Assembly: GCF_030013595.1 (NCBI RefSeq)
Contig: NZ_CP122768.1
Direction: 5' to 3' (one strand)
DNA: 64,000 bases
Source of the DNA: Escherichia coli
GTDB taxonomy: Bacteria > Pseudomonadota > Gammaproteobacteria > Enterobacterales > Enterobacteriaceae
Below are positions 57,950-63,603 of this stretch, piece after piece. Position numbers and translations under genes: made by a program. The first letter of the stretch is position 1, and each line of letters starts with the position of its first letter. A model generated the notes under the pieces. The model was given only the letters and a program-made list of their open reading frames with translations, ran no database searches and was not told the DNA's origin.

Positions 57950-58207
57950 ATGCAGACTCAATTAAAGGTTAAAGGCGGTTATAGTCATTTTTTCTTCGCC
58001 AATATTGAAGTCTCACAAAGAGAGTCAAATGGCGGTTTGGTTGTCGTTAGGGATGTTAATATACCTATTACAACAACAACTCTCTCTCTGTTAGAGAATT
58101 ACGCTGTAGGGCAGGTGTTGACGTTAGAACAAAAGAATGGCGATTTTTTTGATGTGTATTACGTTGGAACTGATGGGAATAACTTTCAGTTTTCAACGCA
58201 CTGCTAA
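57950..58207 (+). CDS. hypothetical phage protein; its 3' end lies in left copy of a ~200-bp direct repeat
   Basis: 85-aa ORF with GGAG RBS. Confidence 0.45.
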   Translation: MQTQLKVKGGYSHFFFANIEVSQRESNGGLVVVRDVNIPITTTTLSLLENYAVGQVLTLEQKNGDFFDVYYVGTDGNNFQFSTHC

Positions 58208-58310
58208 TTTATCAAGGCCCTGTGAGCAGGGCCTTCGAAAGCCTACTAAAGTCTGTTTCATAGAGAGAGTTATTTGCGATTAAAAAGGTATTTGGTCACG
58301 ACCAGCACGA
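58114..58310. repeat. left copy of diverged ~200-bp direct repeat
   Basis: Aligns to 63183..63374 at roughly 85% identity with short indels. Confidence 0.7.
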
Positions 58311-58419
58311 TAGAGAATACATCTTTCAAAGTACCGCCCATATAAAACAGTTACATATGCACTTGATGACTAAGCTGGCACCAGGTTAACACCATGCGCC
58401 AGCTTGAAGGAGACTTCAG

Positions 58420-58593
58420 TTATTGGTTTCTGAGGAAAGCGATTCTTGAAAGGGTCATTTGCGTCTGGCAGTCGACCATTTTCTTGACTTCAGCATCTGT
58501 TCCTTTCTTGACTTCAGCATCTGTTCCCTGCATTGAAACTTTACCGCACATAGCATCCTTAGTTTTGATCCACTGGCGCTGAGAAGGCAGCAA
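58420..58593 (-). pseudogene. 3' fragment of lipoprotein gene split by IS629
   Basis: Joining across the IS with one copy of the ACT target duplication restores one frame to TAA at 58420..58422. Confidence 0.65.
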
Positions 58594-58649
58594 CTTGAAC
58601 CGCCCCGGAAATCCTGGAGACTAAACTCCCTGAGAAAGAGGTAAACAGG

Positions 58650-58976
58650 ATGACTAAAAATACTCGTTTTTCCCCCGAAGTCCGTCAGCGGGCGATTCGT
58701 ATGGTTCTGGAAAGTCAGGATGAATATGACTCACAGTGGGCGGCAATTTGTTCCATTGCCCCAAAGATTGGCTGTACGCCGGAGACTCTGCGTGTCTGGG
58801 TTCGCCAGCATGAGCGGGATACCGGGGGCGGTGATGGTGGGCTCACCAGCGCTGAACGTCAGCGTCTGAAAGAGCTGGAACGTGAAAATCGTGAACTGCG
58901 CCGCAGTAACGATATCCTTCGCCAGGCTTCCGCTTATTTTGCGAAGGCGGAGTTCGACCGCCTCTGGAAAAAATGA
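58650..58976 (+). CDS. IS3-family transposase OrfA
   Basis: 108-aa [25 protein letters not shown] recognised as IS629/IS1203 OrfA. Confidence 0.9.
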
Positions 58977-59863
58977 TGCCACTGCTGGATAAGCTGCGTG
59001 AGCAGTACGGGGTCGGACCGGTATGTAGCGAACTGCATATTGCCCCGTCAACGTATTACCATTGTCAGCAACAGCGACATCATCCGGATAAACGCAGTGC
59101 CCGTGCGCAGCACGATGACTGGCTGAAGAAAGAGATACAGCGCGTATACGATGAAAATCACCAGGTATACGGTGTGCGTAAAGTCTGGCGTCAGTTGTTA
59201 CGGGAAGGTATCAGAGTGGCCAGATGCACTGTGGCACGTCTCATGGCAGTTATGGGACTTGCCGGTGTTCTCCGGGGTAAAAAGGTCCGCACTACCGTCA
59301 GCCGGAAAGCCGTTGCCGCAGGCGACCGCGTAAACCGTCAGTTCGTGGCAGAACGACCTGACCAGCTGTGGGTGGCTGATTTTACTTACGTCAGCACATG
59401 GCAGGGCTTCGTCTATGTGGCGTTTATCATTGATGTGTTTGCCGGATACATCGTGGGGTGGCGGGTCTCATCGTCTATGGAAACGACATTCGTGCTGGAT
59501 GCGCTGGAGCAGGCGTTGTGGGCCCGTCGTCCGTCTGGCACCATCCATCACAGCGATAAAGGCTCTCAGTATGTGTCACTGGCCTATACGGAGCGACTAA
59601 AAGAAGCCGGATTACTGGCATCAACAGGGAGTACAGGCGACTCGTATGACAACGCGATGGCTGAGAGCATCAATGGTCTTTACAAAGCGGAGGTAATACA
59701 CCGTAAGAGCTGGAAAAAACGTGCAGAAGTGGAACTGGCCACACTAACGTGGGTGGACTGGTATAACAATCGACGATTGCTGGGAAGGCTGGGCCATACT
59801 CCTCCGGCAGAAGCAGAAAAAGCTTATTATGCTTCCATCGGAAACGATGATCTGGCAGCCTGA
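58973..59863 (+). CDS. IS3-family transposase OrfB (DDE integrase-like)
   Basis: 296-aa ORF overlapping orfA in -1 frame. Confidence 0.9.
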
Positions 59864-59905
59864 GTTCACAGATAAAACACTCTCCAGGAAACCCGGGGCG
59901 GTTCA

Positions 59906-60680
59906 ACTCTTTTTTCTTCGCCGGGGTTAACTTGCTCCAGACGGTATTCAAATCAGAGTCAGCATTTGCAAATGCCATTCGGGACTGATCAAGGCTTTCA
60001 GATTTTTGCGGCTGAAGTTGTGCCTGCCTCTCTTTTTGCTTCTCCGCCTCATACCTGGCCTGTTCCTGTGCCCTGAGTTGCACCTGTTGTTCCGCTTCAA
60101 TTTGACTCTGTTGGGCATCCTTAGCCTGCTGGATTTTCTGCTGCTCAACGATCGGGTTGATAATGGAAAGCGATGTCAGTAAAGCGGCGCCCACTGATAT
60201 CGGATTATCAGAAGAGGTTTTTACAAAAACGTTTTTCTGATCGTCGGTCGCCTGCACGGTGTAGGTGATACGCCTTGAAAAGGCGTTTGCGTTGTTCTCC
60301 AAAAACAGATTTTCCATTTGCTTATCGAGATTACGATTAAAATTCTTTCTGTAAGCATCTGAAAGCTGGACGTACTCGTTCGCAGGTAGAGTCATCGTCA
60401 CGGTCCCTTCACAAGTTTTCATTGTGCTGCCCGTGTCACTTGATGTTGTGGAGATTTCAGAGACGGCTAGTTTGATCTTGTCCAGTGTGCTTCGTTTGGT
60501 CTGATTAGTGACATCAGGGTATTTATCGACCTGTTCAGAGAGTCCTTCATAAGCAGATTTTTTTAATAAATCCATGAGAGCTGATTGGGTCATTTCCGAA
60601 GAACAACCGATCTCATCTTTTTTGTTATCACAGCCTGTAAGGGCAATGGCGAGTAAGAGTACTGAGTATTTTAATCTCAT
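59906..60680 (-). pseudogene. 5' fragment of lipoprotein gene split by IS629
   Basis: ORF 59670..60680 has lipobox LTGC; after codon 258 it reads into the IS629 right end. Confidence 0.7.
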
Positions 60681-61436
60681 GAATTCCCTTTAGAGTAAGG
60701 ATTGGTTTTTAAGACGCGGTCTGTAATCAGTTCCGAGAGCTACAGTAAACAACGCTGAGCACTGAACGCATCACAGGCAAGGTAAAAGGTGATATCGGCA
60801 AAGGCTGTGAAACCTTTAATTCAACAGATGGGAACGGTATGCACAGGATCCTGTAACGACGCTCCCAAAACTGGAAACCTGTAAGGCATGTTTTCGCTGC
60901 TGAACTTAATATACGAACCTGCACTATCATGAACATATTTTATATCGTTATACCCCGAGTGATTGTGCCCGGCAATGGATAGTGTCCTGGAGGAATTATT
61001 TCTAATGTAAAAGGAAGATATTTAATTTCGATGTGGGATTATTACCTGTCTATAAGAACAATGACTTTATCTGGCAGTAAGCAGACATCTATTAGCTTAC
61101 TGAAGGGGGGCTGTGATTTGACCATTAACGGCATGAGATATATTGTCTATTGGTGATTGTTCTGAGGCCGATATCACGTTAACGACCAAGTAAAATAACA
61201 TGAAAAATTATTTATTAATGATTGCCAGCATTAAATGTAGTGATACCTCATTAGCAGGGTGCTCCGCAATGACTGCGATGAACTAAAAAATCAGTCATAA
61301 CCATGAAAAAAACAAGTGTATCAGCGAAATTAAATCTGGTGAAAGCATTTAATTACTTGTTAATGACGCAATAAAAACATACTATGGAAATGTAACAGCT
61401 AATCTACAGTTCTTGTCAATAGGGGCGCACAAGAAA

Positions 61437-62027
61437 ATGTTAAATGAATTTAAGGAAAAGCTACTATCCGACGATATCCGCGATGTCTACCAACGATACC
61501 TTTTAGGACATGACATCTGGTATTTTCGGGAACAAAAAAAATCAATAACCTTTGCTAAAGATTATGATGAGTTTAAGCTATATATGTCTAAGAAGCTTGA
61601 AATTCATGTAAATAATATTGCAATTGTTGGAAGTGCTAAGATGGGATTCAGCTTGAGCCCTGATAAAAATTATCGAACATTTAACGATGAGTCAGATATA
61701 GACTTGGTTTTAGTATCCGACAGAATTTATAAATCTTCCTGGATGGCATTTATTGAATTACAATCAAAGAATTATTTGCCTGTATATGCTCCTGTAGCTA
61801 AAAATATTTTCAAAGGATTCGTGTCATTGAAGGAGTTAGATATTAGAGTCGATTTTTTTAATAAATGGTCCCGTAACGTTGAACCATTAAAAAAAGACAT
61901 TCAAACTATTTTTGGAATACCTAACGACATCAACTACAGAATTTATGACTCTTGGGAGTCCGTTGAACGCTATCACATAGCTGGGTTGAATAGTCTAAAA
62001 GATAAGTTACAAGGACAATTGATATGA
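61437..62027 (+). CDS. small Pol-beta-superfamily nucleotidyltransferase-like protein
   Basis: ORF 61413..62027 opens on TTG, first ATG 61437; IVGSAKMGFS...ESDIDLVLV fits the GS...DxD pattern; low GC; stop overlaps next start (ATGA). Confidence 0.65.
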   Translation: MLNEFKEKLLSDDIRDVYQRYLLGHDIWYFREQKKSITFAKDYDEFKLYMSKKLEIHVNNIAIVGSAKMGFSLSPDKNYRTFNDESDIDLVLVSDRIYKSSWMAFIELQSKNYLPVYAPVAKNIFKGFVSLKELDIRVDFFNKWSRNVEPLKKDIQTIFGIPNDINYRIYDSWESVERYHIAGLNSLKDKLQGQLI

Positions 62028-63082
62028 GAGCTATTGATCTAATTAAAGTTGAATCGAAAGACATTAAATGGTTGACGGATAATTTGAAATCAGGTGTTAT
62101 TACAGTTGATAATTCATATCAGAGAAAATATATCTGGCAGCAAAAAGACCAAGTGGCCTTAATTGAGACAATATTAATTGGCTACCCAATCCCTGAGATT
62201 TACCTTTGGGCAAATAATACTGATCCTGACACTGGAGATACTAAATATTCAATTGTAGATGGACAGCAAAGGCTAACCACAATCCAGCGATATTTAAATG
62301 ATGAGTTTAAGTTAAGCAAAGCAGCTATAGATGATAAAGAAGCCGACTATAGTGGGAAAATTTTTTCAGAATTGTCGGCAGATAACAAACGTGATTTTTG
62401 GCGATACCAATTCTCATCCAGATTTATTAATGAATCATTGAGATATGATGAGATTGCAAAGTTATTTTTACGTCTAAATAGAACAAATACTACGTTAAAT
62501 CCTCAAGAACTTCGTAATGCTGAATTTAATGGCGAGTTTTTAAGATTAGCCGAAGAAATTGCACAAAATGAATTTTGGGATAATTATAAGATATTTACTC
62601 AGTCAGATATCCGTCGGATGCAAGACATTCAATTCATCAGCACATTATTGATTTTCTTACGAATGGGTATTGAGCAGGATAATACACAAAAATCAATTAA
62701 TCGAGTGTATGATCAATACAATGAGAATTACCCTGAGGCGACTGAGGACAGAATTATCTTTAACGAAGTGTTAAGGATCATATCTCAAATTATCAACAAT
62801 AAACAAGTATTAGAATCAGTTGTAAAGAAAAAAGGCCATTTGTATTTTATATTTGTGCTGGCATACTATTATTTACAGCTTAGTAAATCTAAGCTTGTTG
62901 ATATGAATGTTATTAGTTCAAAGCTCGAGGATTTTTTTAATATTTATGAGTTAAATGAACAAGATAACCCCCATCCACTGGTTGAGGAATATAGATTCCT
63001 CAGCCAAGAGGGTTCAAAGAAGAGTCATAACAGACAGCGTAGATTTGATATTTTGAAAGAATTTTGCTCTTTACATGATTAA
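62024..63082 (+). CDS. DUF262 (ParB-like, GmrSD N-terminal type) protein; no recognisable nuclease domain
   Basis: 352-aa ORF with YQRKYIW and IVDGQQRLTT motifs; helical C-terminal half without HNH/DUF1524 motifs. Confidence 0.75.
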   Translation: MRAIDLIKVESKDIKWLTDNLKSGVITVDNSYQRKYIWQQKDQVALIETILIGYPIPEIYLWANNTDPDTGDTKYSIVDGQQRLTTIQRYLNDEFKLSKAAIDDKEADYSGKIFSELSADNKRDFWRYQFSSRFINESLRYDEIAKLFLRLNRTNTTLNPQELRNAEFNGEFLRLAEEIAQNEFWDNYKIFTQSDIRRMQDIQFISTLLIFLRMGIEQDNTQKSINRVYDQYNENYPEATEDRIIFNEVLRIISQIINNKQVLESVVKKKGHLYFIFVLAYYYLQLSKSKLVDMNVISSKLEDFFNIYELNEQDNPHPLVEEYRFLSQEGSKKSHNRQRRFDILKEFCSLHD

Positions 63083-63182
63083 ATGACGAAAGTGGGTTGT
63101 TTATAAGAATTGAATAAACAACCCATCATTTTAATGTACTCTGAATCCTCTCATTCTTAGTGAAATATTGTTTTTAGAACAC

Positions 63183-63374
63183 GTATTGACGTTAGAACAA
63201 AAAATAGATTTTTTTGTGATGTATTACGTTGGAGTTGATGGGATAATTATATGTTTTCAATACATTGTTAATTTATCAAGACCCTGCGACTAAGGTGTTC
63301 GAAAATCGACTAAAGTCTGTTTCATAGAGAGAGTTACTTGCGTTTAAAAAGGTATTTGGTCACGACCAACACGA
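63183..63374. repeat. right copy of diverged ~200-bp direct repeat (decayed copy of 3' end of 57950..58207 gene)
   Basis: Aligns to 58114..58310; reading frame broken by stops and indels. Confidence 0.7.
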
Positions 63375-63603
63375 GGCCGAATACCTCAGTTTAAGTACCG
63401 CTCATGTACAACAGTAACGTTTGCTGATAGTGTCGCATTATCTTGCAGAGGACGCAGGTTAAATAGAACAAGCATATGTACCTGGTTTTTGTAATATTGG
63501 GTATAACATATGCTTTATAGGAGCGCGCTCAATGACCAACCGAGAAAGAATCTCCTGACAGATACAGTTATTTTCACCCTCTCCATAACATAAGGGAGTT
63601 TTT

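Follow-up and report, generated by a model that had tools for sequence, protein, structure and literature searches.

The locus raises the question of whether a prophage lipoprotein gene has been split by an insertion sequence (IS) and, if so, what the strain has lost with it. The window, i.e., the whole 64,000-nucleotide stretch of DNA that was analyzed, is a part of an Escherichia coli chromosome with a lambdoid prophage beside a tRNA-Gly/Cys/Leu cluster, downstream of uvrC-pgsA. The best explanation of the locus as a whole, which we consider very probable, is that an IS629/IS1203 element inserted recently in codon 259 of a prophage gene for an LprI lipoprotein and disrupted it. Every coordinate in the earlier note on this DNA was reproduced, and its central claim was borne out: an IS629-type element has split a lipoprotein gene and is flanked by a 3-bp target duplication, with ACT on both sides.

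The split gene and the inserted element

The gene is a monocistronic open reading frame on the minus strand that starts at 60680 and opens with MRLKYSVLLLAIALTGC (open reading frame list and translation); a scan for consensus promoters and terminators of this minus-strand gene gave nothing convincing. The features of the locus are as follows.

58420..58595, minus strand: 3' fragment of the lipoprotein gene, opening with the second AGT of the duplication and continuing from the remainder of codon 259 through codon 315 to TAA
58480-58527, minus strand: perfect 24-bp tandem duplication (GTDAEVKK twice) within the LprI domain (TRF score 96, 100% match)
58593..58595: copy 1 of the target-site duplication, ACT on the plus strand and AGT on the gene strand
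58596..59905, plus strand: complete IS629/IS1203 isoform (IS3 family), 1310 bp, assigned from length and inverted repeats
58650..58976, plus strand: IS orfA, 108 aa, HTH_Tnp_1 (Pfam 2.4e-12; NCBIfam transpos_IS3)
58931..59047, plus strand: ALIL pseudoknot at the orfA/orfB overlap (Rfam RF01497, 119.2 bits vs a gathering score of 50)
58973..59863, plus strand: IS orfB, 296 aa, HTH_21 and rve DDE integrase core (Pfam rve 8.5e-28; NCBIfam transpos_IS3 3.9e-94)
59670..60680, minus strand: present frame, a 336-aa chimera (open reading frame list)
59906..59908: copy 2 of the target-site duplication, ACT
59906..60680, minus strand: 5' fragment of the lipoprotein gene, codons 1-258 and the first base of codon 259
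60630..60680, minus strand: signal peptide MRLKYSVLLLAIALTG, then the predicted lipid-modified Cys17 (codon 60632-60630), from the sequence

The last native codon before the right end of the IS is codon 258 (GAG, 59909-59907). The in silico excision proposed in the earlier note, i.e., deletion of 58596..59908 (equivalent to 58593..59905), restores one frame of 948 nt and 315 aa that ends at TAA 58422..58420. The present frame instead joins the 258 native residues to 78 IS-encoded residues, which are unrelated and contain additional cysteines, and its stop codon lies within the IS. The 5' fragment encodes the signal peptide, an N-terminal α/β domain, a Q/E-rich helix, and LprI helix 1, and the 3' fragment, which was defined by in silico excision, Pfam, and alignment, encodes LprI helices 2 and 3 with both conserved cysteines of the domain (C274 and C300); the insertion removes these two helices and both cysteines from the protein. 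The reconstructed protein has 315 residues rather than the usual 307 because this allele carries the 24-bp tandem duplication. The duplication is missing from 30 of the 30 aligned homologues, is also present in the intact allele of two pig strains, and predates the IS insertion.

The IS has TGAACCGCCCCGG at its start and the reverse complement at its end. It has TG...CA termini and imperfect terminal inverted repeats, in which 13/13 and 22/25 positions match, the left one at 58596 and the right one ending at 59905; the end motif occurs at these two places only in the 64-kb window, vs 0.08 occurrences expected by chance. The ACT/ACT duplication agrees with the 3 to 4 bp known for IS629 (PMC3271280), and the ACT is present in a single copy in the empty site of the closest relative (L003). 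A 5-bp overlap of BLAST blocks suggested a 5-bp duplication (AGTTG), which was rejected: the additional TG belongs to the canonical end of the IS, and 3 bp was chosen because only 3 bp yields a 1310-bp element. Both orfA and orfB are intact, and they overlap. Over its full length the IS is 98.4 to 99.9% identical to RefSeq copies of the IS1203 family, for which an identity of at least 95% was taken as the threshold. The values are 99.8 to 99.9% for copies from pig E. coli strains annotated as "IS3-like element IS1203 family" and 98.4 to 98.6% for copies from O157:H7, so that the element is closer to the pig-strain isoforms (99.9%) than to those of O157:H7 (98.5%). The ALIL pseudoknot has the role of a -1 frameshift stimulator.

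The empty site and the age of the insertion

In L003 the same site is uninterrupted (...AAAAAAGAGTTGCTGCC...), and the flanks are 99.9% identical on both sides; the 5' fragment is likewise 99.9% identical to the intact gene of this relative. That gene is a 948-nt coding sequence (WP_112024906.1) identical to the reconstruction at 947 of 948 nt, and the two proteins differ by one residue (E29D). Two E. coli strains from pigs carry WP_112024906.1 as a single intact coding sequence within this same prophage. The commoner allele of 307 aa (WP_001237642.1) is 93 to 95% identical to the reconstructed protein.

The earlier note had made its reading depend on the reconstructed frame being conserved as a single protein in a relative. 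In the search for intact homologues, at least 438 E. coli genomes, together with genomes from across Enterobacterales, were found to encode this frame as a single annotated protein without interruption. The gene is carried by approximately 8% of complete E. coli genomes, many strains labeled ST131 among them. The site is uninterrupted in 440 of the 5,426 complete genomes of this species, and the two IS junctions were absent from every one of the 5,426. The insertion is recent and strain specific, since the IS and the duplication are perfect, a near-identical prophage (99.5 to 99.9%) has the empty site, and the junctions are absent from all these genomes.

The intact protein and its genomic setting

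In the intact protein, an N-terminal α/β domain is followed by a Q/E-rich helix of variable length and, at the C terminus, by the three-helix LprI/DUF1311 domain. It begins with a type II signal peptide (MRLK-YSVLLLAIA-LTG-C17) that has a positively charged n-region and a hydrophobic h-region; the lipobox is L-T-G-C, in agreement with the pattern [LVI][ASTVI][GAS]C, and the predicted mature N terminus is C-D-N, with Asp at position +2. Cys17 is kept in 31 of 31 homologues, and the residue at +2 is Asp in most enterobacterial members and Gly in Proteus and Morganella. Asp at +2 is a LolCDE avoidance signal that leads to inner-membrane retention (PMC5727369), and such a location is predicted here. 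Five cysteines (C17, C26, C90, C274, and C300) are invariant in the alignment, and members of the family, in all of which the lipobox Cys is conserved, are 300 to 333 aa long. The Q/E-rich helical region described in the earlier note is correct; it is a variable-length linker and not the functional domain.

The LprI domain (PF07007) spans aa 230 to 312 (Pfam; 34.9 bits vs a cutoff of 22, E = 2.1e-8) and has the helical fold and the conserved Cys pair of DUF1311; the IS sits inside it, a point that the earlier note, as with the tandem duplication, had missed. The gene is under purifying selection, with a dN/dS of 0.16 overall, 0.06 for the LprI domain (vs Citrobacter), and 0.11 for the N-terminal domain; constraint is strongest in the LprI domain. 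The predicted model shows a well-folded N-terminal domain (pLDDT above 90). The protein matches PHROG 5094 (E = 3e-181), which is labeled "unknown function," and its name "lysozyme inhibitor LprI family protein" is a domain-based annotation only. Searches of PDB sequences with the protein, the family profile, and the profile of the C-terminal domain gave nothing significant, and Foldseek gave no match to the PDB at E < 0.1; there were only weak NTF2-like matches, which recurred for the N-terminal domain. No PADLOC model matched the lipoprotein, and no MliC domain (PF09864) was matched in Pfam at E ≤ 0.1.

The earlier note placed the gene inside an accessory cassette, and this placement holds: the gene lies on the strand opposite to its neighbors in an AT-rich cassette that separates Q from the replication genes of the lambdoid prophage. 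The GC content is 44.8% for the gene, 37.6% for the cassette, and 49 to 50% for the window. The neighbors here are phage genes and a DUF262 pair, and different genes adjoin it in BCE-1 and S42. Position, strand, atypical GC content, and variable neighbors in related prophages are those of a prophage moron. The Citrobacter and Morganella orthologues have ordinary chromosomal genes around them, their 6-kb flanks contain no phage genes, and the Morganella orthologue adjoins yfhM-pbpC, an envelope/peptidoglycan locus. A tblastn search of 50,697 GenBank phage genomes with the protein gave no match. Known members of the lipoprotein family come from prophages (PHROG 5094) and from chromosomes, and none comes from an isolated phage.

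Effect of the insertion and candidate functions

The event itself was the transposition of a complete IS629/IS1203 copy into codon 259, by which the AGT of the gene strand was duplicated. Because the LprI domain is destroyed, the resulting allele is very probably null or severely crippled. The intact protein would carry a type II signal peptide, be lipidated on Cys17, and be retained in the inner membrane through Asp+2, facing the periplasm, where a long helical spacer would hold the N-terminal α/β domain apart from the disulfide-containing DUF1311 domain. The latter may bind and block a peptidoglycan glycosidase that reaches the periplasm, such as a lysozyme-like muramidase or a lytic transglycosylase. 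[quoted passage not shown]

This glycosidase-blocking mechanism, the likeliest of those considered, is put forward tentatively, at somewhat less than an even chance. Its precedents are the DUF1311/LprI proteins that confer periplasmic immunity to cell-wall T6SS effectors in EHEC (Etsi4/Etse4; PMC12981562), with further cases in Salmonella Dublin (PMC8867033), in Pantoea (PMC9796082), and among the WHIX effectors (PMC12135965). Like Etsi4, TsiV3 of V. cholerae (PDB accession number 4NSR), and SED_RS06230 of Salmonella Dublin, which have a three- or four-helix domain and neutralize cell-wall-degrading effectors, the protein is predicted to be periplasmic and has a small helical DUF1311-type domain. 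Those proteins, however, are single-domain proteins of approximately 90 to 150 aa encoded next to their effectors, whereas the present one has 315 aa, a predicted lipid anchor, an extra N-terminal domain with a spacer, and no effector neighbor. The word immunity is therefore used by domain analogy only, since no effector gene lies beside the gene here or beside its Citrobacter and Morganella orthologues, the neighbors of which are housekeeping genes. The M. tuberculosis LprI (Rv1541c) is also a lipoprotein with a PF07007 domain, but it has in addition an MliC domain, to which its lysozyme inhibition is attributed (PMC7933661) and which was not detected here.

A second function is suggested by Salmonella ScwA (SL1344_0490), the single characterized enterobacterial protein of similar layout that the analysis turned up, which raises MltD and lyses cells if overproduced, without giving lysozyme protection (PMC7933661); the lack of such protection speaks against the glycosidase-blocking mechanism. 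By analogy, the intact lipoprotein could modulate the cell's own peptidoglycan hydrolases, e.g., MltD, in amount or stability, and the IS would abolish this effect. Compared by description, ScwA is alike in being an enterobacterial periplasmic protein encoded by a low-GC gene that was acquired horizontally. It has an N-terminal domain and a C-terminal LprI domain, and its four conserved cysteines are arranged 2+2 in the manner of C26/C90 and C274/C300; the position of the Morganella orthologue beside yfhM-pbpC also fits a role of this type. However, ScwA (275 aa, type I signal peptide) is encoded between ybaP and copA and not in a prophage, and it and its orthologues (275 to 278 aa) are soluble proteins and not lipoproteins, in contrast to the family of 300 to 333 aa with its invariant lipobox Cys, and we regard the ScwA-like function as unlikely. 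An exhaustive HMM search gave 544 representative proteins at E ≤ 1e-3. Matches of 275 to 278 aa among them were considered as ScwA and rejected, being Succinivibrionaceae proteins of another architecture with a Cys-rich N-terminal domain.

The insertion may also not amount to a knockout, if the N-terminal domain and the spacer are the working part and loss of the LprI domain is tolerated or selected. The N-terminal domain is indeed modeled with a pLDDT above 90, and this reading would account for independent disruptions within a few bases of one another: in CP088658.1 an IS911-like element (target-site duplication TTG) lies 2 bp away, in a protein cluster of 166 member sequences, and frameshifts directly after PAKKK occur in Citrobacter (P0084) and "Ca. 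Pantoea" (P0098). Given these truncations at the same spot in other strains, the N-terminal part could be functional alone. The frameshifts, however, are located within an A6 homopolymer and are possibly sequencing errors, the LprI domain has the lower dN/dS (0.06 vs 0.11 for the N-terminal domain), the site is intact in 440 genomes, and the chimera gains 78 unrelated residues with extra cysteines; tolerated truncation is thus decidedly improbable. Codons 255 to 259 read AAG AAA AAA GAG TTG, and IS629, the IS911-like element, and the frameshifts all hit this stretch. In a combined reading, the "orphan immunity" lipoprotein would act against T6SS muramidases or phage tail lysozymes, and these codons would be a recurrent inactivation hotspot at which lineages repeatedly switch the protection off; we give this combination a similarly low probability.

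The earlier note suggested an inactivated surface or exclusion lipoprotein, and this part of it did not hold up. Many lambdoid morons are exclusion lipoproteins, and a lipoprotein of the Cor, Llp, TraT, or Bor type, acting at the outer surface to block a phage receptor or conjugation, would suit a prophage-borne gene in an accessory cassette that adjoins a DUF262 protein matching defense models (PADLOC NsnA, 4.3e-41). Yet the Asp+2 residue predicts retention in the inner membrane, the orthologues of Citrobacter and Morganella lie in the chromosome and the flanks examined are free of phage genes, and the 50,697 phage genomes hold no homologue. Beyond the signal peptide, the protein has no similarity in Pfam, NCBIfam, PHROG, or PADLOC to Cor, Llp, Bor, TraT, TrbK, or any other exclusion or surface lipoprotein; the TrbK match (E = 0.083, aa 8 to 29) covers the signal peptide only. 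Such a function is very unlikely. Although IS copies often cause mis-joins in assemblies, an assembly chimera or a chance juxtaposition of reading frames without any real insertion is effectively refuted by the exact 3-bp duplication, the complete 1310-bp element, and the collinearity of both flanks with an uninterrupted gene of a nearly identical prophage, nothing was found in its favor, and its probability is negligible.

With the insertion of IS629/IS1203 as the preferred reading, the case resembles other inactivations by this element in E. coli prophages in its length of 1310 bp, its inverted repeats of approximately 25 bp, the orfA/orfB pseudoknot, the 3-bp duplication, and the prophage target; 62% of the IS629 copies of O157:H7 sit in prophages (PMC3271280). 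It differs from the known cases in its site, since this insertion is absent from all of the 5,426 complete E. coli genomes searched. An IS knockout of this kind is ordinary, well understood, and already known, with nothing new in kind. The insertion is a clean, recent IS629/IS1203 strain marker that tells the source strain from its nearest sequenced relatives, and it has little importance beyond strain typing. The disrupted gene, on the other hand, belongs to a widespread, uncharacterized family of enterobacterial lipoproteins; it is split here and intact as WP_112024906.1 and WP_001237642.1, and this natural knockout and its isogenic-like intact relatives form a possible test pair for protection by a DUF1311 lipoprotein against peptidoglycan-degrading effectors. 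The nearest sequenced relatives carry other IS insertions in the same prophage.

The split gene and the inserted element

The lipoprotein gene starts at position 60680 on the minus strand (beginning MRLKYSVLLLAIALTGC..., from the minus-strand reading of 58300-60800 and the ORF listing), and its reading frame passes codon 258 (GAG, 59909-59907) and one further base before it enters the right end of an IS element (TGAACCGCCCCGGG...) that has ACT on both sides (58593-95 and 59906-08). As the earlier note had proposed, in silico removal of the element and one ACT restores a single frame of 948 nt, which codes for 315 aa and terminates at TAA (58422-58420); all coordinates of that note, namely those of the element, its flanks, and the restored frame, were reproduced.

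Features of the inserted IS629/IS1203 element
58596..59905, IS element, exactly 1310 bp, termini matching at 13/13 and 22/25 positions
58650-58976, orfA, 108 aa, HTH_Tnp_1 protein
58973-59863, orfB, 296 aa, HTH_21 and rve DDE core (NCBIfam transpos_IS3, 3.9e-94)
58931-59047, ALIL frameshift pseudoknot (Rfam, 119 bits)

The copy is complete and looks transposition-competent, and its end motif does not occur again in the window (0.08 expected by chance). IS1203 is an isoform of IS629. Compared from end to end, the element shows 99.8-99.9% identity to copies that carry the annotation "IS3-like element IS1203 family" in the pig E. coli UMNF18 and O139:H1 W13-16, versus 98.4-98.6% for O157:H7 copies. 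IS629 generates duplications of 3-4 bp without a sequence-specific target, and 62% of the O157:H7 copies are located in prophages (PMC3271280).

The gene itself contains a perfect 24-bp tandem duplication (58480-58527; GTDAEVKK twice) in the loop that joins helices 2 and 3 of the LprI domain; this duplication is common only to the window and two UK pig isolates. Another E. coli allele (P0002) has an unrelated 8-aa duplication (AEQQVQLR twice) within the Q-rich spacer, and short in-frame duplications apparently arise readily in this gene.

The empty site and the prophage cassette

The 948-nt reconstruction matches 585 complete E. coli genomes, with at least 438 matches spanning 80% or more of the gene; among the matches listed, all sit under a CDS named "lysozyme inhibitor LprI family protein", and the frame is thus present in relatives as an intact single CDS. 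The pig isolates HCP5S3_I2 and LCP30S3_I5 carry a 948-nt allele (947/948 identical; WP_112024906.1, E29D) in a prophage that is 99.5% identical to the window across 24 kb. The window sequences on either side of the IS align to this locus without a break and with only one AGT, as in a classic empty site. A 159-bp probe spanning the site detected the uninterrupted form in 440 of 5,426 genomes, and 300-bp probes spanning each junction found neither junction in any of the 5,426. Because of the empty site in relatives and these two counts, the insertion is real, recent, and strain-specific. Prophage accessory genes in E. coli are routinely disrupted by IS elements, and both components, the IS629/IS1203 element and the RefSeq-annotated protein family, are already catalogued; only this particular insertion allele is unlisted.

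In an annotated relative, the prophage follows dcyD-tcyLN-sdiA-uvrY-uvrC-pgsA and tRNA-Gly/Cys/Leu, and begins with the integrase, recombination genes, the repressor region, and replication genes, among them that of the replicative DNA helicase; these are followed by small genes, by the oppositely oriented lipoprotein gene, by a 204-aa ORF with a DUF262 protein, and by DUF1367, DUF1364, and Q. The GC content is 44.8% for the lipoprotein gene, 37.6% for the cassette without the IS, and 49-50% for the window, and the neighbours of the gene differ in other prophages (e.g., an ORF6N protein and ImmA/IrrE), so that "accessory cassette" is a fair label. Direct repeats of ~220-245 bp (80-86% identical; 58142-58360 and 63207-63424) bracket this AT-rich cassette with its lipoprotein gene, 204-aa ORF, and DUF262 ORF. 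The 3' end of an 85-aa ORF (57950-58207) is covered by the first copy, and a degenerate relic of that coding sequence (ORF 63168-63293) lies within the second; the repeats resemble a scar left by recombination that inserted or exchanged the cassette.

The 204-aa ORF (61413-62027, plus strand) and the DUF262 ORF (62024-63082, plus strand) overlap by 4 bp and are divergent from the lipoprotein gene. The former matches only phrog_32008, a PHROG label without function, and the latter matches PADLOC NsnA (4.3e-41), PD-T4-2_A (2.5e-19), and SspE-like models; the pair is a candidate two-gene anti-phage defence system of the prophage. The 732-bp intergenic region (60681-61412) between this pair and the lipoprotein gene contains no convincing ORF, and a consensus scan of it gave a lone promoter-like site (61118-61146, plus strand).

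The relatives have IS insertions at other places instead, namely within an exonuclease gene, following the DUF262 gene, and in yecU, consistent with ongoing IS activity in the lineage. IS3-family copies lie in or beside the same cassette of related prophages: in BCE-1 (locus L001, 7490-8799), where an IS629-like copy (96% identical) is ~450 bp upstream of an intact lipoprotein gene; in S42 (L002, 6004-7568), adjoining ORF6N; and in HCP5S3_I2 (L003, 5258-6486 and 18456-18947), after the DUF262 gene and within the exonuclease gene. IS elements land repeatedly in the cassette region.

The protein family, the effect of the insertion, and predicted function

The protein has a Pfam LprI domain (PF07007, formerly DUF1311) at residues 230-312 (34.9 bits, cut-off 22) and matches PHROG 5094 ("unknown function") at 3e-181. 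Homologous proteins, 300-333 aa long, are encoded by E. coli, Citrobacter, Enterobacter, Pseudescherichia, Yersinia rohdei, Pantoea, Erwinia, Kluyvera, Proteus, and Morganella. An exhaustive HMM search recovered, at E <= 1e-3, 544 representatives of 50%-identity clusters, the majority of which share the two-domain length. In the AlphaFold model (pLDDT 84), an α/β domain (29-155), for which only weak NTF2-like matches were found, is followed by a single long helix (160-221) and three C-terminal helices (230-249, 253-274, and 291-313). Cys17 (lipobox), Cys26, Cys90, Cys274, and Cys300 are invariant in a 31-member alignment, in which the QRQWI motif is nearly fully conserved (Q263-I267 invariant) and the length of the Q/E-rich spacer is highly variable. 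The gene is under purifying selection, with a dN/dS against Citrobacter of 0.16 overall, 0.11 for the N-terminal domain, 0.27 for the spacer, and 0.06 for the LprI domain.

The IS enters between helices 1 and 2 of the LprI domain; both conserved cysteines of this part and the QRQWI motif are lost from the reading frame, to which 78 IS-encoded residues are added. Because the most constrained domain is destroyed, the split gene is very probably a null or severely crippled allele. Since it forms a monocistronic unit on its strand, its neighbours should be free of polar effects.

The Citrobacter orthologue is surrounded by ordinary chromosomal genes, with an iron ABC transporter on one side and MFS/amn genes on the other, and that of Morganella is immediately downstream of the α-2-macroglobulin (yfhM)-pbpC pair (L013-L015, 3332-7002), a locus for periplasmic defence and peptidoglycan repair; this context weakly hints at an envelope or peptidoglycan role. 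Because it shares about 85% identity with the Citrobacter protein, the E. coli prophage copy looks like a captured chromosomal gene.

The mature protein begins with Cys-Asp-Asn, and because Asp at +2 is a LolCDE-avoidance signal (PMC5727369), the E. coli protein should stay at the periplasmic face of the inner membrane; this residue is not family-wide, being Gly in Proteus and Morganella. DUF1311/LprI domains have been linked, experimentally or through their genetic neighbourhood, to immunity in the periplasm against T6SS effectors that degrade the cell wall, as with Etsi4 of EHEC (PMC12981562), in Salmonella Dublin (PMC8867033) and Pantoea (PMC9796082), and with WHIX effectors (PMC12135965). 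We tentatively favour, as a judgement by domain analogy, a similar role in which the lipoprotein would bind exogenous peptidoglycan glycosidases. Two points count against an immunity-like binder: Salmonella ScwA, which has a similar layout and four Cys, raises MltD and gives no lysozyme protection, and the activity of M. tuberculosis LprI is attributed to an MliC domain, which the prophage protein lacks (PMC7933661). A ScwA-like regulator of endogenous hydrolases is in our judgement unlikely, and the surface or exclusion lipoprotein suggested earlier is most improbable, as it finds no profile support in Pfam, NCBIfam, PHROG, or PADLOC searches and Asp at +2 predicts the inner membrane rather than the surface.

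Lesions at codons 255-259

The mildly interesting remainder is that independent lesions in other strains gather at codons 255-259 (59900-59915). This clustering was noted post hoc; the codons may be a lesion hotspot, and part of the clustering may be homopolymer sequencing error. Frameshifts directly after PAKKK (an A6 run) occur in the Citrobacter freundii and Ca. Pantoea bituminis homologues (P0084 and P0098, respectively). In E. coli CP088658.1, an IS911-like IS3-family element of 1250 bp (L004, 4778-6027; target-site duplication TTG) is inserted 2 bp away from the position of IS629, and the interrupted protein (P0071, 259 aa) belongs to a cluster of 166 member sequences.
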